Below, piece by piece: positions 36,344 through 63,924 of a DNA stretch of 64,000 nucleotides. The stretch is from Escherichia phage vB_EcoM_PHB13. The stretch's first letter is position 1. Each line of letters opens with the position of its first letter. The notes below the pieces were generated by a model. That model was given only the letters and a program-made list of their open reading frames with translations, was not told where the DNA came from and made no database searches. The position numbers and the translations under genes were made by a program. Location of the stretch: sequence record MK573636. The stretch is one strand, 5' to 3'.

Positions 36344-36349
36344 TTTTCA

Positions 36350-36381
36350 GCCGATCCGAAAGGGTCGGCTTTTTCGTTTTT
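36350..36381 (+). terminator. intrinsic terminator after nrdD
   Basis: GCCGATCCGAAAGGGTCGGC hairpin plus T-tract. Confidence 0.65.
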
Positions 36382-36386
36382 GGGTG

Positions 36387-36414
36387 TTGACAACCTGATT
36401 AGCTAATGTATAAT
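36387..36414 (+). promoter_or_regulatory. sigma70-type early promoter cassette
   Basis: TTGACA-N16-TATAAT followed by ...CATCGAAAACAACGAGAGG...ATG. Confidence 0.6.
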
Positions 36415-38252: not shown

Positions 38253-38262
38253 GGTGATTATT

Positions 38263-38790
38263 ATGGAATGGGAAGTTGGTAAAACTTACAAGATTGAATG
38301 CGAAGCGTCGAAAGCCGAACTGACTAAATTTTCGTCGTCTATTAACAGATGTATTGTTGACTTGTTGGCTGGTCGCCCGTTTAGGGTAGAAGACCTTGAC
38401 GATGATGGTGATGTTAGAGAAATTACTATTATTGGTAGTAATTTCGACTCTATGACGTTAAAAGAATCCCCTATTGGCTGTTCCGGTGTGTGGTTTTGGT
38501 CGGGTGAGCGTCGTTTCTTTACCGAAGTTACTATTGAACCTAAGATTCCAGATTCGGAAGAAAAAGAAGAAGACCTAACTTTAGAACGCCTGGGTCTGCT
38601 TATGGAAGCCTACGACATTCAGTTGATCGATAAGATGGGGTTACATAATAGCATTGCCAAAATTACTACCCTAGAAGGTATTAAGAGCGTGCTTGATGGT
38701 ATGCCTAGCCGGATCGGTGCTATCCGAGAATACAAGCAAACGCGCGACCGTATGATCCAATTAGAATCACGTATCAAAAATGAGAGATGA
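38263..38790 (+). CDS. WExGKTY-family protein (paralog 1)
   Basis: About 175 aa starting MEWEVGKTYK. Confidence 0.45.
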   Translation: MEWEVGKTYKIECEASKAELTKFSSSINRCIVDLLAGRPFRVEDLDDDGDVREITIIGSNFDSMTLKESPIGCSGVWFWSGERRFFTEVTIEPKIPDSEEKEEDLTLERLGLLMEAYDIQLIDKMGLHNSIAKITTLEGIKSVLDGMPSRIGAIREYKQTRDRMIQLESRIKNER

Positions 38791-38794
38791 TATT

Positions 38795-39259
38795 ATGAAA
38801 TGGGAAGCTGGTAAGACCTATGCGTGGAAAGATGTAAAAGATGCAAACCAATTTTTTAAATGGTATGATGTTGATTATTTGAAATATCTGAGATTACCGT
38901 TTAAAGTTGCGTCGGTTGATGCGAAAAAAGGATACGTGCGGTCTGTTTATCTTCATGATGGAACTTATATGAGTTCAACCGATGTAGGTCTATCTTGTTG
39001 GTTTCTGGATCATGACCGTAGCAGATTTGAAGAAATTATTATTCCAGAAGAATCTAAATTAATTGATCTTCTCAAGTTGGCGATGGATAATTATAAAATC
39101 CGCTTTGAATGCAAATCACATGCGGCTATCGGTGCTAACGCCTTGCGTCATATCTCCAGTTTTGAAGAGTTGAAAGATTTTCTTGACAAAATGCCGGAAA
39201 GGGTGCAAGCTATACAGGAAGCAGAGAAAGCATTAAACGAACTTGATAAAATCGGTTAA
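38795..39259 (+). CDS. WExGKTY-family protein (paralog 2)
   Basis: About 154 aa starting MKWEAGKTYAWKD. Confidence 0.45.
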   Translation: MKWEAGKTYAWKDVKDANQFFKWYDVDYLKYLRLPFKVASVDAKKGYVRSVYLHDGTYMSSTDVGLSCWFLDHDRSRFEEIIIPEESKLIDLLKLAMDNYKIRFECKSHAAIGANALRHISSFEELKDFLDKMPERVQAIQEAEKALNELDKIG

Positions 39260-39271
39260 GGGGAATATATT

Positions 39272-40096
39272 ATGAAATGGGAAATTGGTAAAACTTACAC
39301 CTGGAAAGACGAAAACGCTAAAACTGAGTTTATTACTAACGGAGAAGGTGTTCTTTCTCCACTTAACAGCGATATTAGTGCAGCTATTGGTGACAAGCCA
39401 TTTACCATCATCGAGATCGAGGGTAACGGTTGGATTGATGCAATAGAGCTAGACGGTGTTTATCATACGGCGAAAACTGCTACAGGAAAAGACATTTGGA
39501 AGTCAACATATTTGTTTAGTCCATTTGATAGAAAATTCTTTCGTGAAGTTGAAGAAGTTCCCCAGAAATGGGAAGTTGGTAAAACTTATACTTGGAAAGA
39601 TATTAAGGCTATGACCGACTTCTGTCATTATGCCGAAAACGTATCTAACCTTAATTATGTTATTGCACGAGCAATAAATTATAGACCTTTTACTGTTAAA
39701 AATGTTCGTCCATGTGGGCAAATTGATGTAATTGAAATTGATGGTAAAGACCATACTCTAATGAGCGCAACCGAAGATAGAGACCATAAAGGAACTAGCT
39801 GGTTTATTGATTCTGATAGAAAATTCTTTCGTGAAGTAGAAGAATTGGAAGTTATAACCACTGATTCTAAGATCGTTGGACAGTTGAAACGTCTGTTTAG
39901 TAGTCGTTACGGCCTGACAATGGTTAAATTTGGCGAAGCAAATGAAGGTAAAACCTTTGAACGTTTCGATGATTTCATTTCGGCACTTGACAAGATGGAT
40001 GAAATCATGCAAGATCGCCAGAAGATTAAAGACCTTCAAGAAGACATTAAACGTCGTGAAGTTGAATTTTTGATTGGTAAAGAGCGAGGATGGTAA
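39272..40096 (+). CDS. WExGKTY-family protein (paralog 3, internally duplicated)
   Basis: 274 aa with two copies of the module (MKWEIGKTYTWKD... and ...QKWEVGKTYTWKD..., each ending DRKFFREVEE). Confidence 0.45.
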   Translation: MKWEIGKTYTWKDENAKTEFITNGEGVLSPLNSDISAAIGDKPFTIIEIEGNGWIDAIELDGVYHTAKTATGKDIWKSTYLFSPFDRKFFREVEEVPQKWEVGKTYTWKDIKAMTDFCHYAENVSNLNYVIARAINYRPFTVKNVRPCGQIDVIEIDGKDHTLMSATEDRDHKGTSWFIDSDRKFFREVEELEVITTDSKIVGQLKRLFSSRYGLTMVKFGEANEGKTFERFDDFISALDKMDEIMQDRQKIKDLQEDIKRREVEFLIGKERGW

Positions 40097-40097
40097 T

Positions 40098-40583
40098 ATG
40101 TTTGTTGCTGGCGTGACCTATCAGTGGAAAGATAAGAAAACGAGAGAAGATTTTGCAAACTTTAGCGTTGCAAATGATGCAATAGCAGAGTTTATCGGCG
40201 ACCGTCCATTTAAAGTTATTGCATTTGATCACCACCATGCATCGGATGTGAATTATGTTTCTGTGATTGAAATTGATGGCACGGTATACACCTGCTGCAA
40301 TGTTGATGATGTACGGGAATACGCGCACAACTGGTTTTTGCAATCAGAAGAACGTCATTTTAAAGTGGTATCGGCAGAGCTATCATCCGAAGCAATGTTG
40401 GAACAATTTTTCAACAACTACGAAGTTTCTGTACGTCGCTATGGCGAAGAAGAAGTGTTTAAAATCGATGATTACAATCAGTTTAAACGAGTATTCGCCA
40501 CTAAGTTACAGCGTGATTTTGAACGCGAGAAGCGCATCAAGGAACTGGAAGAAGAATTGGAAAGATTAAAGGCTGAGAAATGA
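40098..40583 (+). CDS. WExGKTY-family protein (paralog 4)
   Basis: About 161 aa starting MFVAGVTYQWKD. Confidence 0.45.
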   Translation: MFVAGVTYQWKDKKTREDFANFSVANDAIAEFIGDRPFKVIAFDHHHASDVNYVSVIEIDGTVYTCCNVDDVREYAHNWFLQSEERHFKVVSAELSSEAMLEQFFNNYEVSVRRYGEEEVFKIDDYNQFKRVFATKLQRDFEREKRIKELEEELERLKAEK

Positions 40584-40849
40584 TCGAGATATACGGTATA
40601 CCGAAAGAGGCTTATCATTGTTATGGTTGTATTAGTGCAATGAAGCTACTGGATGATCTGGGTATTCCGTATACACTTAAACCAGTATTCAAGCAGGTCG
40701 GGGTTGACATTATTCCCGACCGTGATATGATTGAAGAACTGGCGGGGAGGCTAAACTCAAAGAGCCTCCGGTTTGTATACCCCCAGATATTCATTGACAA
40801 CGAGCACATTGGAGGCTATAAAGAACTGAGGGCGATTTATGATTATTGA
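40580..40849 (+). CDS. nrdH: glutaredoxin-like protein NrdH
   Basis: 89 aa with CYGC redox motif and C-terminal PQIFIDNEHIGGY glutaredoxin signature; T4 nrdH position. Confidence 0.7.
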   Translation: MIEIYGIPKEAYHCYGCISAMKLLDDLGIPYTLKPVFKQVGVDIIPDRDMIEELAGRLNSKSLRFVYPQIFIDNEHIGGYKELRAIYDY

Positions 40850-40997
40850 GAATTTAGTTTCGGTGTTCATTATTGCTTTATTTGCTATAATGACTTTACC
40901 GTTGAAGAAGTGTAAACACTGTAACGGAACAGGATTGCGTGGTGATGGGTGTTGCGCTCATTGTCATGGATCTGGTAAAGTAAGTATCATTAAGTAA
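40839..40997 (+). CDS. small membrane-anchored protein with DnaJ-type zinc-finger repeats (52 aa)
   Basis: Sub-cutoff ORF: N-terminal TM helix followed by two CxxCxGxG repeats (CKHCNGTG, CAHCHGSG). Start overlaps the end of nrdH in another frame. Confidence 0.35.
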   Translation: MIIENLVSVFIIALFAIMTLPLKKCKHCNGTGLRGDGCCAHCHGSGKVSIIK

Positions 40998-41018
40998 TTC
41001 TTGAGTGAGGAATATATT

Positions 41019-41306
41019 ATGTTAGTACACAATGCAATCGCACACATGGTTTATTCTCGATTTGGGCGCAGGGAAGAAATCAATATTACCGACGCAGATT
41101 TAGATCTGATGCAAGTAGAAGGTCAGACATATCTGAAAAATAACGGCGTGAATATCGGTAAAGCGCGTGTGCGTGAATTGTTGGTTGAATATATTCTCTC
41201 TGAATTTGGCATTAGTGCTTTCGGTGTGAAAGAGCTTGCACCTAAGCGCGAAATTTCTGATAAAATGATCAAGAAATGCCAGAAAGCACGACGTAAGGGT
41301 TTCTAA
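41019..41306 (+). CDS. hypothetical protein
   Basis: About 95 aa from GAGGAATATATT-ATG; stop overlaps the start of the NTPase gene. Confidence 0.45.
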   Translation: MLVHNAIAHMVYSRFGRREEINITDADLDLMQVEGQTYLKNNGVNIGKARVRELLVEYILSEFGISAFGVKELAPKREISDKMIKKCQKARRKGF

Positions 41307-42775
41307 TGAAGATTGAAACATTAATCGCATTGCCAGCGGCGGGGAAAACTGATGCTATACTTTCCCACGTCCTAGAGACAAAAGAAAAAGCGGTTATTGC
41401 TTCGCCATCTCGTGTTTTAAGTGAACAATCTTACAATAAGTTTAAAAGAATGGGCGGTCGTGCTGTCTTGATCGATAGCACAAGACTAAGAAGCCTTAAG
41501 ACAGTGCAAGCGTCGATAATGCAATCAGTTAAAGACGGTGCTGATGTGATATTCATTACACATACAGCGTTATCTAATATGGAACGTTCAAAAATGTTTG
41601 GTGAATATGCTCTTTACATTGATGAAGTTCCTCAACTGGTTGAATTTAATGAGTATCCGTTTAAGTCTAATCTTGAACTTATCACGAAGCATTGCGAACC
41701 AATCGCCGACGAATCGGAATGCCTACAGAACTTAGTTCTAAAAGACTCTGAGAAGGCCGCTATCAAAGAAAAGATAGAAAGTGCAAAGGATGGTACTGAT
41801 ATGATCGATTCTTCTCTTAGAGGGCTTTATGAGGCGTTATTAGAGAAGAAAATCAACGTTATGGTAAAACATAACGAAGGACACCGGAAGAATGGGTCGA
41901 AAATTGTTTTCTTGAACGATAACAAACACGGTACGTGGGGAGACTTTAAAAAGGTTACGATAGCATGTGCAAATCTCTTTGATACATATAGCGGGAAGTA
42001 TCTACGATACTATGCAAATTGCGATTTTGTTCCGAGTGCGCTAGAATCCAGACTATATTTCAAAGAGTATAAAAATACAGATAGAGTTAATATCATCCTT
42101 ATGACGGACTCCGAACGATGGTCGCGTCACCAGTCAGAAACAAACAATACCTTTGAACGTCTTGTTGATATGGTTAAAAATGAATGTGGTGATGACTTCA
42201 TTTATACCGTGAATCGGGACCGTGAAGCGTGCACAAATGGTATTGGCGAGCGGATACCTTACGGATCTTATGGTCTTAACTCTTACATTCATCATAAAAA
42301 TGTTGCTGTGATGTTCAGCTTTAACCCTCAACGATGGGAGATTGATATTTTAAAAGGTCTTGCTAATAGTTGTGATCTCCCGACAAATGAGTTTTTGAAA
42401 GCGCGTCATGTGTCTGATTATCTGGAACCAGCATTTCAATTATGTTTGCGTTGTAACCTGAGAGACAACGAGAGCAAGGAGAATGTTAATCTATATGTTC
42501 CTGATTGGGCGTTGGTAGATTATCTAAAAACGTTTCTACCTAATGCCAATGTAATAACAGACAGAATGATTCCGCTAGAATGTGGTGAGCGTAAAGGGCG
42601 AAAATCATTTAAAAAGATGTTCGATTTTAACGAGCAAGAGAATGCAAGATTTAACGGATTTAAGTACCGCATGAAGAAAAAGGGAAAAACTCTTGATCCG
42701 TCTGACGGTGAATCAGTAGAGATGGTTAGAGTGTGGATAACTAAGCAAAGAAAGTATAATGGCAATGGGGAATAG
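41306..42775 (+). CDS. P-loop NTPase of unknown function
   Basis: 489 aa; Walker A-like LPAAGKT near the N-terminus and Walker B-like ALYIDEV about 95 residues later; no further helicase motifs recognised. Lies between nrdH and gene 55, where T4 has only small 55.x ORFs. Confidence 0.5.
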   Translation: MKIETLIALPAAGKTDAILSHVLETKEKAVIASPSRVLSEQSYNKFKRMGGRAVLIDSTRLRSLKTVQASIMQSVKDGADVIFITHTALSNMERSKMFGEYALYIDEVPQLVEFNEYPFKSNLELITKHCEPIADESECLQNLVLKDSEKAAIKEKIESAKDGTDMIDSSLRGLYEALLEKKINVMVKHNEGHRKNGSKIVFLNDNKHGTWGDFKKVTIACANLFDTYSGKYLRYYANCDFVPSALESRLYFKEYKNTDRVNIILMTDSERWSRHQSETNNTFERLVDMVKNECGDDFIYTVNRDREACTNGIGERIPYGSYGLNSYIHHKNVAVMFSFNPQRWEIDILKGLANSCDLPTNEFLKARHVSDYLEPAFQLCLRCNLRDNESKENVNLYVPDWALVDYLKTFLPNANVITDRMIPLECGERKGRKSFKKMFDFNEQENARFNGFKYRMKKKGKTLDPSDGESVEMVRVWITKQRKYNGNGE

Positions 42776-42815
42776 CCCGAAAGGGTTATTTCCTAAATAA
42801 TAGCGAGGGTGCGAA

Positions 42816-43349
42816 GTGTCTGATTATGTAAACAATAAAGAGCTTTACGAAGAAATTTGCCGTTGGAAACAACAAATTGCAGCAGAAGGTCGGCAAGTTC
42901 CAATGAGCGATCAAATCGGCCTAGCAATTATGCAAATCTCTAAAAATCTATCACGTCGTTTTAACTTTTCTGGTTATAGTCAAACATGGCGCGAAGAAAT
43001 GATCGACGACGGAATCGAAGCGGCGGTCAAGGGTTTGATTAATTTTGACGAGACAAAGTATAAAAATCCTCATGCTTACATCACGCAAGCGTGCTTTAAT
43101 GCTTTTGTACAGCGCATTAAAAAAGAGAGAACAGCGACAGCCGCAAAATACAAATATTTTGTGCATCATGTATATGACGAACGCGACGCTGATATGTGCC
43201 AGATTGCTGATGAGGCATTCATACAGGACATTTACGATAAAATCAACAACTACGAGGAATCGGTCAATAAACCGAAAGCGCCAAAGGTTGAAGATGTATT
43301 GACTGAGGAATTGCCTAGCCTGGACCAATTTTATGAGATTGAAAATTAA
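42816..43349 (+). CDS. 55: late-transcription sigma factor gp55
   Basis: 177 aa (GTG start); size, order (nrdH...55...47) and conserved central region ([21 protein letters not shown]...[15 protein letters not shown]) fit T4 gp55. Confidence 0.8.
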
Positions 43350-43566
43350 CATTTCCCGTTTGCTGGAAGAAGCAGAGTTTGAAACTGACCTCGTGCCGTA
43401 TTTCGCCAAATTATTTTTGAGAGATTGCGGCGTTCCGGTGATTATCGATCCGTGCAATATCAAATCACCGGATCTTGAGGTCTTGACGGGTACAATCTCA
43501 CATAGCTATAATGTATCAGAAGATGAATTTTCTTTAATAATTGATTATATCCCAGAGGTAAAATAA
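43333..43566 (+). CDS. hypothetical protein
   Basis: 77 aa. Confidence 0.4.
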
Positions 43567-43855: not shown

Positions 43856-43945
43856 TGGCTTTATAAGGGAGACTCCGAAAGGGGTTTCCCTTTTTATTTT
43901 TCTGTGATATAGTGAGAGCATCGAAAACGAAGAGAGGAAGAGACT

Positions 43946-54790: not shown

Positions 54791-55861
54791 ATGTCTGTAC
54801 TGGAAAAACTGAAAAAGAACTCTACCCTGAAAACTACTGCGGTACTGTCTAAATCCAGCTTCTTTAACGAAAAAACAAATACTCGCACTAAGATCCCGAT
54901 GCTGAATATTGCGTTTTCCGGTGATCTTAAAAAAGGCTTTCAATCTGGTCTGATTTTCTTTGCTGGTCCGTCTAAGCACTTTAAATCAAACATGGGATTA
55001 ACCTGTGTTAGTGCATACATGAAACAGAATCCTGATGCGGCTTGTTTGTTCTTTGATTCTGAGTTCGGTATTACTCCCGCTTATCTGGAATCTATGGGCG
55101 TAGATCCTGATCGCGTAGTGCATGTTCCAATCAAGAACATCGAAGAACTTAAATTTGAAATCATGAACCAGCTTGAGCAAATTACCCGTGAAGATAAAGT
55201 GATCATCTTTATTGACTCAATTGGTAACTTAGCAAGTAAAAAAGAAGTTGAAGACGCGATTAATGAGAAATCCGCACAGGATATGACGCGAGCGAAAGCA
55301 CTTAAAGGCTTGTTCCGTATGGTTACGCCGTATCTGACTATGAATGATATCCCGTGCATCGCTATTAACCACACTTACGAAACGCAAGAAATGTTTAGTA
55401 AGACCGTTATGTCCGGCGGTACGGGCGCGATGTACAGCGCGAATGAAGTTTTTATTATCGGTCGTCGCCAGCAGAAAGAAGGTACAGAGTTGACTGGTTA
55501 TGAGTTTATATTGAAGGCCGATAAGTCACGAACTGTTAAAGAAGGGTCGAAGTTCCCGATTGATGTAACGTTTAGCGGTGGTATTAACCCATATTCCGGT
55601 TTACTGGATCTCGCAATCGAGCTTGGGTGGGTCGTCAGCCCGTCGAAAGGTTGGTATTCTCGTTCCATTCTGAATACTGAAACAGGAGAAATGGAAACAG
55701 AAGAACGCAAGTTCCGTGCTAAAGAAACTAATAGTGTTGATTTTTGGAGACCGCTTCTGACTAATGATAAGTTTAACGAAGCGATTAACGAACACTATCA
55801 GCTGGGTCAAGTTATAAGCGATGAGGCAGTTGACAAAGAAGTCGAAGATATGTTAGCATAA
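54791..55861 (+). CDS. uvsX: RecA-like recombinase UvsX
   Basis: 356 aa; Walker A AGPSKHFKS, conserved IAINHTYETQEMFSKTVMSGGTG region typical of T4 UvsX. Confidence 0.85.
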   Translation: MSVLEKLKKNSTLKTTAVLSKSSFFNEKTNTRTKIPMLNIAFSGDLKKGFQSGLIFFAGPSKHFKSNMGLTCVSAYMKQNPDAACLFFDSEFGITPAYLESMGVDPDRVVHVPIKNIEELKFEIMNQLEQITREDKVIIFIDSIGNLASKKEVEDAINEKSAQDMTRAKALKGLFRMVTPYLTMNDIPCIAINHTYETQEMFSKTVMSGGTGAMYSANEVFIIGRRQQKEGTELTGYEFILKADKSRTVKEGSKFPIDVTFSGGINPYSGLLDLAIELGWVVSPSKGWYSRSILNTETGEMETEERKFRAKETNSVDFWRPLLTNDKFNEAINEHYQLGQVISDEAVDKEVEDMLA

Positions 55862-55916: not shown

Positions 55917-56234
55917 ATGGATAAGAAACCAACAAGTTTAGAAGAAGCACACAGCTTGATTCAAGAAGCAATGAAGACAGTTATCCAGGAACTGATAATT
56001 GTTGATGAAGAGGGAGAACATCATATTGTCTATATTCATAATGTTGAATACGATCCAGACACTAAAGGTATTGTGGTCGACTACTCCACGCCGTCAGATC
56101 GTGATGTGGTATATCCACACGTCATTAAGGCGTTAACCGCGCAGATCAAAGAAGCAGAAGAAAAGTTGAAAAAAGAAACTTTCTGGTATAAACTCAAGAC
56201 CTTTGTTATGCGTGTAGTTGGGGGCTATGTATGA
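55917..56234 (+). CDS. 40: gp40-like head vertex assembly chaperone (by position)
   Basis: 105 aa between uvsX and the gene 41 helicase, as gene 40 is in T4; C-terminal hydrophobic tail. Confidence 0.4.
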   Translation: MDKKPTSLEEAHSLIQEAMKTVIQELIIVDEEGEHHIVYIHNVEYDPDTKGIVVDYSTPSDRDVVYPHVIKALTAQIKEAEEKLKKETFWYKLKTFVMRVVGGYV

Positions 56235-57643
56235 TTAAAACTATCTTTTCACAGTTGATTTACAATGGCGCATTCTTTACGAATGTATGGCCTCACCTTA
56301 AAGCGGACTACTTCACCGAAGACGAAGAAAAACTGATTTATAAGCTGATTAAAAAGCACGTAGACGAATATTCCAATATTCCTACGCCAACAGCATTACA
56401 GATTGCTTTAGACAAGGAGAGAGGCAATCAGACAACATATGAAGGGGCTAAAACTCTTCTTGATTCGCTTGAGAATACACCGGAAGACCTTGATTGGTTA
56501 ATGAAGGAAACCGAAAAATTTATTCGTGACCGTGCCATGTATAATGCAATGTCACGGGCGCTAGAGATTCAGGCGAACGCACAACTACCAAAAGAGAAAC
56601 AGAATAAGAAATTGCCGAGTGAGGGTGCTATTCCTGAGATCATGCAGGAAGCACTATCCATTACGTTTGATTCTGATGTAGGTCATGACTGGTTTAATGA
56701 CTTTGAAAAACGATTCTTGCTATATCAGACTAAGGCGAATAAGATCCCGTTTAAGCTGCCGATGTTGAATAAAATCACGAAAGGAGGTGCGGAAAGAAAA
56801 ACGCTAAATGTGTTGCTTGCTGGTGTAAACGTTGGTAAATCGCTTGGCTTGTGTTCTCTTGCTGCGGATTATATGGAATGTGGTTATGATGTATTGTATA
56901 TATCAATGGAGATGGCAGAGCATGTCGTAGCAAAACGTATCGACGCAAACTTGCTTGACATTACATTAGATGAATTGGATAATGGTAATGTTTCTTTTGC
57001 GGAATATTCCGCACGCATGAAGCGTGTTAAGAATAAGAAGATCGGAGATCGTCCGGTTGGAAAATTGATGATCAAGCAGTATCCGACTGGTGGCGCAAAC
57101 TCCAATCACTTTGAGGCGTTAATGAATGAATTGCGACTCAAGAAACAGTTTAAACCTGATGTTGTGATTGTTGACTATCTGGGGATTTGCGCATCGTCTC
57201 GCTTGCGTGTATACTCTGAAAATAGTTACACACTAGTTAAGGCGATTGCGGAAGAACTGCGAGGATTTTTTGTTAAGTGGGATGTTGTTGGTTGGACTGC
57301 GGCACAGACTACCCGCGCGGGTTGGGATGCTTCCGACCTTAACATGAGTGATACCGCTGAATCAGCAGGTCTTCCGGCTACTGCCGACTTTATGTTGGGT
57401 GTTATCGAAACCGAAGACCTGGCTAAAATGGGCGTCCAACTCATGAAGCAGATCAAGTCTCGTTACGGTGATAAGAACTATTATTCACGGTTTAACGTTG
57501 GTGTGAAGAAAGGCAATCAGCGTTGGTATGAAGTACCAAACCAGATCGCAGATCAGGAGAATACACAAGTTAAACCACAAAGCGCACAGCAAGCCGAGAA
57601 ACGCGAAAAACTCGACGAGCTAGCAAATACCATGACTTTCTAA
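56231..57643 (+). CDS. 41: replicative DNA helicase gp41 (DnaB-like)
   Basis: 470 aa; Walker A AGVNVGKS, Walker B VVIVDYLG, DnaB-family layout; T4 gp41 is 475 aa. Confidence 0.85.
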   Translation: MIKTIFSQLIYNGAFFTNVWPHLKADYFTEDEEKLIYKLIKKHVDEYSNIPTPTALQIALDKERGNQTTYEGAKTLLDSLENTPEDLDWLMKETEKFIRDRAMYNAMSRALEIQANAQLPKEKQNKKLPSEGAIPEIMQEALSITFDSDVGHDWFNDFEKRFLLYQTKANKIPFKLPMLNKITKGGAERKTLNVLLAGVNVGKSLGLCSLAADYMECGYDVLYISMEMAEHVVAKRIDANLLDITLDELDNGNVSFAEYSARMKRVKNKKIGDRPVGKLMIKQYPTGGANSNHFEALMNELRLKKQFKPDVVIVDYLGICASSRLRVYSENSYTLVKAIAEELRGFFVKWDVVGWTAAQTTRAGWDASDLNMSDTAESAGLPATADFMLGVIETEDLAKMGVQLMKQIKSRYGDKNYYSRFNVGVKKGNQRWYEVPNQIADQENTQVKPQSAQQAEKREKLDELANTMTF

Positions 57644-62219: not shown

Positions 62220-62533
62220 TGCATGTATTTGCTGTATGTTATCGTGATAAAGACGGATTCTTTCAATACTCAGTGGACGCGAAGGGTCGCGTCCTAACTT
62301 GCGAAACACATGATGCTGCGTTAGCGTCAATGTGTGATCAGATAGATTATTGTGAGAGTCTATTGGCGGGTGAACCGAAATACAAGGTTGTACCTAAACG
62401 AAAATTTGGCATAATCCGGTCTTCTGAAATTGTTCGGGATGGTATCGAATATAAAATTCCTGAATATGAAAAAGAACGGGTACGGCGAGAACTCAATACT
62501 ATCTGTGTTCGCAAGGTGAGGATTTTAGGATAA
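62219..62533 (+). CDS. hypothetical protein (dda.1 position)
   Basis: 104 aa; ATGA overlaps at both ends. Confidence 0.4.
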   Translation: MHVFAVCYRDKDGFFQYSVDAKGRVLTCETHDAALASMCDQIDYCESLLAGEPKYKVVPKRKFGIIRSSEIVRDGIEYKIPEYEKERVRRELNTICVRKVRILG

Positions 62534-63924
62534 TGAGCAGAGTATTAACTTTCGATATGTTAACAGACGGGCAAAAACATGCTTTTGATGTTCTAATGAA
62601 ACGCATTGAACAAAAGAAGCATACAACTGTCCGTGGTGCGGCGGGTACTGGTAAAACCGCAATGATGAAATTCATTGTTCAGGAAATGGTCCGTCGTGGT
62701 GTAACTGGTGTGGTTTTGGCAACGCCTACCCACCAGGCTAAAAAAGTTTTGAGTAAAGCGGTAGGTCGTCAAGCATTTACTTTACATGCTTTATTGCGTC
62801 TTAATCCGACCAACTATGAAGATACTCAAGTATTTGAACAAAAAGATACTCCTAAGCTAGATGATGTTCAGATCATCATTGTTGATGAAGCGAGTATGGT
62901 CGATAAGAAGTTATTTGATATTCTCATGAAGAGTATCAACGGTCGAATTGTTGTTATTGCAGTTGGCGATCCGCACCAGTTACGACCAGTTGATCCAAGC
63001 GGTGCAACGTCAATTTCTCCTTTCTTCACGGATGAAAATTTTCAAAACGTGGAGTTGACAGAAATTAAACGATCTAATGCACCGATCATTGATGTGGCGA
63101 CCGCTGTCCGTAACGGTAAATGGGTATTCGAAAAGCAGTGCGGTAACGAGGGTGTATTCCATAGCTCAACTCTGCCGGAGTTTATGAAGCATTATTTCGA
63201 AACCGTTAAAACGCCGGAAGACCTTCTAGAAAACCGTATTCTGGCTTACACTAACAAGAGCGTCGAAAAACTCAATGAAATTGTGCGTAAGCGCGTTTAT
63301 AACACCGATGAACCCGTGATTGTAGATGAAATTCTGGTTACTCAGGAACCGTTGATCGAATATCTGCGAGATGAACGCGGGAAGAAAATTCCCAATGTTA
63401 TTTTTAACAATGGTGAGATGATCCGGGTTAAAGAGGTTATACCGCGTGAATTTACATTACGTTGCACGGGGGTAGATCCGCAACCAGTTTTAGGCTATAC
63501 TCTGAAAGTGGAAAGCGTCGATGATGACGAAGACAAAGAAATCCTAAATCAGAAAGTCGGTTTAGATGCAGTCGGAATCACTACAGATAAACCAGATTTA
63601 GTAGAAATCAACATTCTGACAGAACAACGTCAGAAGAACATTTTCTCTATCTATCTGAATACGGTCGCCGGACAATATCGCGAAATGAAGAAAGAGAATC
63701 CAAAATTTAAACCAGATTGGGATTCCTTCTGGACGATGAAACGTATGTTCTTGAATGTAAAAGCATTACCAGCTTGCACCATTCATAAGTCACAAGGGAT
63801 CAGCGTAGACCGCGTGTTCCTGTATACTCCTTGTATGTGTACAGACAATGTTGACTTTGAATTGGCAATGCAGTTATTATATGTGGGTGTTACCCGTGCG
63901 CGGTATCGAGTAGACTATATTTGA
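62533..63924 (+). CDS. dda: SF1 DNA helicase Dda
   Basis: 463 aa; Walker A GAAGTGKT, motif II IIVDEASM, conserved ATPTHQAKK and ELTEIKRSNAPIIDVATAVRNGKW regions closely matching T4 Dda. Confidence 0.85.
   Translation: MSRVLTFDMLTDGQKHAFDVLMKRIEQKKHTTVRGAAGTGKTAMMKFIVQEMVRRGVTGVVLATPTHQAKKVLSKAVGRQAFTLHALLRLNPTNYEDTQVFEQKDTPKLDDVQIIIVDEASMVDKKLFDILMKSINGRIVVIAVGDPHQLRPVDPSGATSISPFFTDENFQNVELTEIKRSNAPIIDVATAVRNGKWVFEKQCGNEGVFHSSTLPEFMKHYFETVKTPEDLLENRILAYTNKSVEKLNEIVRKRVYNTDEPVIVDEILVTQEPLIEYLRDERGKKIPNVIFNNGEMIRVKEVIPREFTLRCTGVDPQPVLGYTLKVESVDDDEDKEILNQKVGLDAVGITTDKPDLVEINILTEQRQKNIFSIYLNTVAGQYREMKKENPKFKPDWDSFWTMKRMFLNVKALPACTIHKSQGISVDRVFLYTPCMCTDNVDFELAMQLLYVGVTRARYRVDYI

Follow-up and report, generated by a model that had tools for sequence, protein, structure and literature searches.

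A predicted superfamily-2 helicase and a gene 55.2 homologue reside between nrdH and gene 55 in the RB49-type coliphage vB_EcoM_PHB13

The region between nrdH and gene 55 of Escherichia phage vB_EcoM_PHB13 was analysed within a window of 64,000 nucleotides (nt; sequence record MK573636), the whole stretch of DNA to which all positions refer. This block contains three open reading frames (ORFs) of 52, 95 and 489 amino acids (aa). Judged by its conserved motifs and predicted fold, the 489-aa protein is a complete superfamily-2 (SF2) helicase carrying motifs I, Ia, II, V and VI, while the 95-aa gene is assigned by sequence similarity as the homologue of T4 gene 55.2. The block belongs to the early DNA-metabolism region of RB49-type phages, where it is resident and vertically inherited. 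An earlier note on this DNA had described it as an accessory island with a P-loop NTPase of possible anti-defence or superinfection-exclusion function. The ORF list and the raw sequence confirm the three ORFs it described, all on the plus strand:

40839-40997, plus strand: 52-aa ORF (from the ORF list and sequence), equivalent to RB49ORF046c, matching PHROG 3931 at 4.4e-10.
41019-41306, plus strand: 95-aa gp55.2 homologue, matching Pfam DUF7570 at 1.1e-27 and annotated as '55.2' in RB49.
41306-42775, plus strand: 489-aa predicted SF2 helicase, equivalent to RB49ORF044c, PHROG 2467.

The significant matches to PHROG 3931, DUF7570 and PHROG 2467 show that these ORFs are not chance reading frames. 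PHROG 2467, listed with 'unknown function', covers residues 1-489 of the largest protein at 8.8e-175, and the Pfam DEAD model matches residues 11-130 with 27.4 bits against a cut-off of 26. A weak DEAD match had already been listed for RB49ORF044c (Nolan et al. 2006, PMC1524935). The LPAAGKT (residues 9-15) and LYIDEV (residues 103-108) sequences picked out in the earlier note are present, and in an alignment of 42 homologues (31-99% identity) they form part of a larger conserved set. The invariant residues comprise P10, G13, K14 and T15 in motif I; S33, L38 and S42 in motif Ia (IASPSRxLSxQS); V81, F83 and T85; D106, E107 and P109 in motif II; N223 in a motif-III-like TIAxAN sequence; G323 and N325 in HGLN (motif V); F377, Q378, L379, C380, R382 and R386 in FQLCxRxxxR (motif VI); and P399 and D400. 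AlphaFold2, run on the same alignment, returned a model with two tandem RecA-like domains (predicted local distance difference test 87.6, predicted template-modelling score 0.75). The conserved motifs and the structure prediction thus replace the bare Walker A/B NTPase, said to lack further helicase motifs, with a complete predicted helicase, whose parts are arranged as follows:

41330-41350, plus strand: Walker A, motif I, L9-PAAGKT-15.
41612-41629, plus strand: Walker B, motif II, L103-YIDEV-108, of the DEVP type.
41633-41950, plus strand: predicted insert of about 105 aa in RecA domain 1 (residues 110-215), from motif II to TIACAN, mixed alpha/beta and arch-like in position and size.
42038-42565, plus strand: RecA domain 2 (approximately residues 245-420), with the HGLN motif V and the FQLCxRxxxR motif VI, assigned from invariance in the wide alignment and from model topology.
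42593-42772, plus strand: C-terminal basic helical tail (residues 430-489), rich in Lys and Arg, with helices at 443-458 and 468-486 in the model.

When 1.84 billion representative proteins were searched with a profile, 1330 relatives were recovered at E <= 1e-3. In a wide alignment of 135 of them, which share about 20% identity with the window protein, K14, D106, E107, G323, N325, Q378, R382 and R386 remain invariant. This retention of the catalytic residues is the signature of an active ATPase motor, and we consider it highly probable that the 489-aa protein acts as a nucleic-acid motor.

The best structural neighbours of the model belong to the XPD/Rad3/DinG group, and Hna, DdmD and CasDinG were also found among the neighbours; in BFVD, the fold search returned only uncharacterised phage relatives. 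The group, including CasDinG and Staphylococcus aureus DinG, which lack an iron-sulphur (Fe-S) cluster, shares with the 489-aa protein the two RecA domains and possibly the arch, for which the alpha/beta insert after Walker B is a candidate by its size and position. In our model this insert consists of helices and strands and follows Walker B directly, as does the 116-residue arch domain of CasDinG, which is needed for single-stranded DNA binding and unwinding (PMC10450177). Several features set the protein apart. The Fe-S or vestigial insert that XPD/Rad3/DinG proteins carry between motifs Ia and II is absent, the corresponding stretch being about 60 residues of RecA core elements, and the only invariant cysteines among the 42 homologues, C130 and C380, both lie outside it. 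The Walker B motif reads DEVP rather than DEAH, and an extra basic C-terminal tail follows a low-confidence linker (residues 426-431); no significant family match was found for this tail. Sequence searches of PDB chains with the protein and with the 42-sequence profile found nothing, an NCBIfam scan gave nothing useful, and T4 UvsW, itself an SF2 protein, shows only a generic SF2 match. The protein is best described as XPD/DinG-like in predicted architecture and is not filed as an XPD/DinG member.

The window belongs to Krischvirus, the genus of RB49-type coliphages, with about 99% nt identity to RB49-like genomes. A megablast search with positions 40500-43400 matched 58 phage records, each at 95-99.3% identity over at least 80% of the query and all Krischvirus, including phiS, KFS-EC, W115, RB49, phi1 and JSE. 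The entire 2.9-kb block is present at no less than 95% identity in 58 of 58 Krischvirus records. The matching genes are annotated in RB49 as nrdH, RB49ORF046c, 55.2, RB49ORF044c and 55, and the labels in record W115 are 'putative helicase' for the large gene and 'putative membrane protein' for the small one. The GC content of the block (0.38-0.41) is the same as that of its flanks and is flat over the region.

Beyond Krischvirus, tblastn detected the helicase in 243 phage records, compared with 1995 records carrying gp55, so that conservation extends to only a part of the T4-like phages. As the earlier note had it, the protein is a P-loop NTPase that T4 does not have. At 95% identity or more it occurs in 58 records, which represent every Krischvirus record, and it is found in 77 of the 78 Aeromonas records with gp55; the remaining carriers include phages of Cronobacter, Enterobacter, Citrobacter, Klebsiella, Serratia, Proteus and Erwinia. 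Only 53 of 611 'Escherichia' records with gp55 contain it, which indicates that the T-even phages are without it.

The position of the gene is fixed as well. Of eight genera examined, seven have the helicase gene directly before gene 55, with a-gt.5, a-gt.4, 47 and 46 next in order: RB49 (Krischvirus), Aeromonas phage 31 (Biquartavirus), Erwinia phage Cronus (Roskildevirus, Tevenvirinae), Proteus phage Pm5461 (Bragavirus), Serratia phage PS2 (Muldoonvirus), Aeromonas phage PX29 (Angelvirus) and Cronobacter phage LPCS28 (Nanhuvirus). RB43, representing the eighth genus, keeps the order nrdH-55.2-helicase beside a rearrangement and has gene 55 elsewhere. Pairwise identities of the helicase and gp55 are correlated with r = 0.94 over 15 non-independent pairs from six non-Krischvirus phages. 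The Krischvirus helicase is the outlier of the family, being 38-44% identical to those of all other genera, which share 44-66% among themselves, whereas Krischvirus gp55 (39-65% identical to other genera) lacks the acceleration seen in the helicase. The fixed slot, the co-divergence with gp55 and the uniform GC content point to an old, vertically inherited resident gene. The island description is consequently wrong for two of the three genes. Insertion relative to T4, as stated in the earlier note, applies only to the 52-aa gene and the 489-aa gene; T4 has a counterpart of the 95-aa gene, 55.2, at the equivalent place. Either the T-even lineage, which has 55.1 there, lost the helicase gene, or the gene was gained very early.

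The neighbourhood of gene 55 raises the idea that the helicase assists the late sigma factor gp55, in promoter opening or in clamp-coupled late transcription, comparable to XPD in TFIIH. Its place immediately upstream of gene 55 in seven genera and its structural proximity to XPD/Rad3 would fit such a role. However, RB43 separates the two genes, keeping the helicase beside nrdH and 55.2 with gene 55 at another place, and the partners of the protein's relatives are primases and integrases rather than transcription factors. T4 late transcription is not known to need a helicase. We regard this explanation as very improbable.

The distant relatives place the protein in a wider family. Their lengths are bimodal (approximately 450-600 aa and 750-850 aa), and 59 of the 135 aligned sequences are long forms. 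These long forms carry a C-terminal extension with the conserved motifs LDxDxG (a DxD motif), NSxS...RYRVFIP and GxDxSK...FYLPC. A minority match Pfam PriCT_1 or PriCT_2 (best E 8e-8), and one long form from a jumbo-phage-like contig shows weak matches to 'DNA primase' PHROGs; a search of PDB sequences with the profile of the extension gave nothing significant. Taken together with the literature, the minority PriCT matches, the weak PHROG matches and the DxD motif suggest that the extension is probably a divergent archaeo-eukaryotic primase (AEP) module, in helicase-then-primase order and with PriCT-like helices at its end. Examples of the long form are P0076 in L007 (8001-10511) and P0074 in L009 (8001-10259), whose extensions are mostly missed by Pfam. 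ORFs directly downstream of the short forms in L016 and L017 were considered as split-off primase extensions and rejected, as hhalign comparisons were insignificant.

This family is already recognised as a prediction and is associated with replication modules. Kazlauskas et al. 2018 described AEP primases fused to a remote SF2 helicase with closest homologues in T4-like phages and SPbeta, and predicted a virus/plasmid-specific helicase family with a UL9-like branch (PMC5862659). The 489-aa protein appears to belong to this family (here PHROG 2467 and 31024), an identification made from the published description rather than from pVOG numbering. Two differences were noted: the helicase domains in that paper are C-terminal, whereas in our long relatives the helicase precedes the primase-like part, and the published proteins are primase-fused, whereas those of T4-like phages stand alone.

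A link to UL9 would sharpen the replication role proposed below. In this version, the protein would be a dedicated initiator helicase like UL9 of herpesviruses. It would recognise or open a phage replication origin while gp55.2 promotes negative supercoiling or R-loops, and would replace T4-type origin functions in non-T-even phages. The fusion of family members to primase or PriCT-type domains and the UL9-like sister group noted in the literature (both PMC5862659) are in keeping with it, as are the basic C-terminal tail, the conserved overlap between 55.2 and the helicase gene, and a weak Herpes_ori_bp match in one long member. Among the 42 close homologues, however, none matches Herpes_ori_bp, no sequence-specific DNA-binding domain is recognisable in the phage proteins, and the vicinity has no mapped origin. 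In structure the protein is closest to XPD/DinG and not to initiator proteins, with no UL9 structure among the matches. An initiator of this kind is rather unlikely, in our assessment.

In bacterial genomes, short forms neighbour tyrosine integrases within small integrative elements, and some of these elements also carry a resolvase and defence cargo such as Kiwa. In L019 (4291-13437) and L008 (5867-11274), the short form directly follows a DUF6538-type tyrosine integrase and the element contains a resolvase; the L019 element additionally carries the Kiwa genes KwaA and KwaB. Integrase and helicase together seem to form the backbone of an element type not described before.

These contexts bear on the anti-defence or superinfection-exclusion function suggested in the earlier note, under which the three genes would form a counter-defence module directed against a host immune complex or rival phages. 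T4 and most coliphage relatives do not carry the gene, the helicase-containing defence proteins Hna, DdmD and CasDinG are among its structural neighbours, and some cellular relatives reside in islands with defence genes (Kiwa, AAA_15/21 ATPase). In the integrative elements, however, the helicase forms the backbone beside the integrase and the defence genes are the cargo. The presence of the phage gene is constant, or nearly so, within the Krischvirus and Aeromonas lineages, and its fixed synteny and co-divergence with gp55 are unlike the fast turnover of counter-defence cargo. PADLOC, whose models cover defence systems, produced only a marginal match (13.6 bits, E 0.009), and one of the three genes is the topoisomerase I modulator 55.2. 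The analysis yielded no positive evidence for anti-defence or superinfection exclusion, and a counter-defence module is quite unlikely.

The identity of the 95-aa gene is supported by several comparisons. It matches Pfam DUF7570 with 96.4 bits against a cut-off of 27, a family to which T4 gp55.2 itself belongs (3e-42), and BLASTP aligned it with T4 gp55.2 at 47% identity over 74 aa (E 3e-19). Homologues of 55.2 were detected by tblastn in 1091 phage records. The gene order of T4 is nrdH, 55.6, 55.5, 55.4, 55.3, 55.2, 55.1, 55, so that both 55.2 genes occupy the same relative map position downstream of nrdH; being homologous to T4 55.2, the 95-aa gene is not an insertion. The N-terminal third of the protein diverges from that of T4, and whereas T4 has 55.1 after 55.2, in the window 55.2 is followed by the helicase gene, whose start it overlaps. 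The T4 protein binds DNA and blocks relaxation by Escherichia coli topoisomerase I (Mattenberger et al. 2015, PMC4396842); its toxicity is relieved by extra topoisomerase I or weakened gyrase, and it gives T4 a measurable gain in fitness (PMC4396842). Homology to the T4 protein predicts DNA binding and a damping effect on host topoisomerase I for the 95-aa protein as well.

In five genera, represented by Krischvirus, RB43, Pm5461, PX29 and LPCS28, the gene immediately before the helicase is of the 55.2 type and overlaps the helicase start. In the Biquartavirus Aeromonas phage 31, the DprA-like protein constitutes another DNA-transaction partner in the 55.2 slot. The gene encoding it was considered as a diverged 55.2 and rejected, as the two have no similarity.

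In the role that we propose, the 489-aa protein would be an ATP-driven SF2 nucleic-acid helicase or translocase of the orphan virus/plasmid-specific family. It would be made early and would act on phage DNA as a fourth, auxiliary helicase beside gp41, Dda and UvsW, opening or remodelling intermediates of replication or recombination, for example origins, R-loops, D-loops or stalled forks. A role in replication, recombination or repair is, on balance, somewhat favoured by the evidence. Inhibition of topoisomerase I favours negative supercoiling and R-loops, and the products of the 55.2-like and helicase genes probably share a template that is supercoiled or prone to R-loops. Among the structures unwound by DinG-type helicases are R-loops and RNA:DNA hybrids (PMC10450177). 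This activity, together with the adjacency to 55.2 and the inhibition of topoisomerase I, makes joint action on R-loop-prone or origin DNA an attractive model. A more specific form of this idea is a functional module in which gp55.2, by blocking topoisomerase I, would keep the template negatively supercoiled and the helicase would open or process R-loops at phage origins, providing a UL9-like initiation or restart route in the many T4 relatives without the T4 arrangement; we consider a module as specific as this an unlikely outcome. Replacement of Dda by the helicase was also considered and rejected, as Dda, gp41 and UvsX are all encoded in the window. The T4-type helicases Dda (superfamily 1B) and gp41 (DnaB-like) are thus both present, and the 489-aa protein is additional to them.

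Several observations weigh against the proposed role or the architecture assigned to the protein. T4 and all T-even phages are without the gene, which shows that it is dispensable for the T4 replication scheme, and the phage already encodes Dda, gp41 and UvsX in the window. The adjacency of 55.2 to the helicase is broken in Serratia phage PS2 and Erwinia phage Cronus, and in Aeromonas phage 31 the place of 55.2 is taken by a gene for a 187-aa DprA-like recombination mediator (L003, 2441-3004; PHROG 768 at 5e-67) that overlaps the helicase start, so the adjacency could be mere synteny. The XPD/DinG-like architecture, and any 5'-3' polarity, derive from the predicted model. At the sequence level, the 135-sequence profile retrieved only generic DEAD-box, PriA, Mfd or UvrB RecA1 matches from the PDB, the DEAD_2 and Helicase_C_2 models matched none of the 42 members at E <= 1, and hhalign comparisons of the family profile with E. 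coli DinG (probability 0.6%), RhlE and UvrB were all insignificant, which leaves the family without a sequence-level affiliation within SF2. A literature search on RB49ORF044, the Krischvirus helicase and phage DinG-like helicases found no functional study, and the support for early timing consists of consensus promoter matches.

These matches, together with the borders of the block and the terminator-like hairpin beyond it, are listed here:

40580-40849, plus strand: nrdH glutaredoxin, left border (Pfam Glutaredoxin, PHROG 22; nrdH in the RB49 annotation).
40704-40731, plus strand: sigma-70-like promoter match inside nrdH from a consensus scan (TTGACA, 16 nt, TG-n-TATGAT; 11/12, extended -10).
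42816-43349, plus strand: gene 55, late sigma factor, right border (PHROG 234 at 4e-63; RB49 annotation).
43865-43892, plus strand: first strong intrinsic-terminator-like hairpin 3' of the block, after a-gt.4 (12-bp stem, then a T-run).

The block lies within a tightly packed plus-strand run bounded by terminator-like hairpins at 36349-36370 and 43865-43892. The promoter match inside nrdH is located about 110 nt upstream of the 52-aa ORF and could drive early transcription of the three genes; further sigma-70-like matches were found at 36387 (12/12) and 38134. Patterns for the T4 late promoter (TATAAATA) and the MotA box were found nowhere within 36-44 kb. Judging from the consensus matches, early expression of the block genes is likely. 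At 36349-36414, the GC-rich hairpin (36349-36370) is directly followed by a perfect sigma-70 consensus (TTGACA, 16 nt, TATAAT; 12/12), an arrangement resembling the mobile 'promoter-early stem-loop' cassettes of RB49 and phi1.

The junctions between the genes bear out the translational coupling claimed in the earlier note in two of three cases. The 52-aa ORF starts before the nrdH stop, with an 11-nt overlap, and its start is preceded at a distance of 7 nt by a GAGGG Shine-Dalgarno sequence. The stop of the 95-aa gene and the start of the 489-aa gene share the sequence TAATG, with a 1-nt overlap. The 52-aa and 95-aa genes, however, are separated by 21 nt, and the latter has its own GAGG Shine-Dalgarno sequence, so this junction does not count as coupled. 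The 95-aa length is counted from the ATG at 41019, as annotated in RB49; a TTG at 41001 would give 101 aa.

The 52-aa peptide reads MIIENLVSVFIIALFAIMTLPLKK-CKHCNGTG-LRGDGC-CAHCHGSG-KVSIIK. As the earlier note had recorded, it combines a transmembrane segment with two CxxCxGxG repeats and overlaps the end of nrdH. The hydrophobic segment (approximately residues 5-22) is followed by a KK pair and then by the repeats C25-x-x-C28-x-G-x-G32 and C39-x-x-C42-x-G-x-G46, which would form one zinc site. Because lysines follow the anchor, the positive-inside rule would place the zinc knuckle on the cytoplasmic side, and the sequence suggests a membrane-anchored zinc knuckle with a cytoplasmic C-terminus. 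With its two CxxCxGxG repeats within about 25 residues, the peptide resembles the DnaJ-type zinc centre and small zinc-knuckle proteins such as Bacillus subtilis anti-TRAP, which is of similar size. The N-terminal membrane anchor distinguishes the peptide from both, and DnaJ has two zinc sites where the peptide would have one. Matches to DnaJ models, anti-TRAP and RtpA are weak and all far below family cut-offs; for the DnaJ central zinc-finger family (PF00684), the score of 14.6 bits against a gathering cut-off of 32.7 places the peptide outside the family. In contrast to DnaJ and anti-TRAP, the peptide is essentially confined to Krischvirus: tblastn matched 61 records, of which Krischvirus accounts for 58, each with at least 90% identity; the others are weak zinc-motif matches. 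Among the three genes, it is the only one that behaves as lineage-specific accessory material, and it probably has no functional tie to the helicase.

The surroundings of the block include nrdD/G/H, 55.2, 55, 47/46, 43, uvsX, 41 and dda, and the window also encodes Dda (62533-63924), gp41 (56231-57643), UvsX (54791-55861) and the clamp loader. Upstream, between nrdG and nrdH (38254-40583), four tandem paralogous ORFs of 175, 154, 274 and 158 aa correspond to RB49ORF051c-048c. All begin with a W-E/K-x-G-K/V-TY-x-WKD module, of which the 274-aa ORF has two copies; they are 27-31% identical in pairwise BLASTP (E down to 1e-13) and match PHROG 5347 and, weakly, 'goF mRNA metabolism modulator' PHROGs. 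Downstream, a homing-endonuclease gene of the HNH/AP2 type (RB49ORF040c, 555 nt) separates a-gt.4 from gene 47 in RB49. In PHB13 these two genes are just 90 nt apart (43856-43945), with the terminator-like hairpin in the gap, and the window is therefore without this endonuclease.

Overall, the block combines a member of an already catalogued helicase family, a homologue of a known T4 gene and a short peptide specific to the genus, and its value lies in an experimental target and a correction of annotation. Rather than 'hypothetical protein' or part of an island, the 489-aa gene would be annotated as 'SF2 helicase, XPD/DinG-like fold' and the 95-aa gene as 'gp55.2-like Topo I modulator'. About 12% of sequenced gp55-bearing phages carry this fourth, conserved predicted helicase beyond the textbook T4 replication system. 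The carriers include every RB49-type coliphage used in therapy cocktails and almost all T4-like phages of Aeromonas. The activity, polarity and partners of the protein bear on how non-T-even phages and small mobile elements may start or rescue DNA replication.

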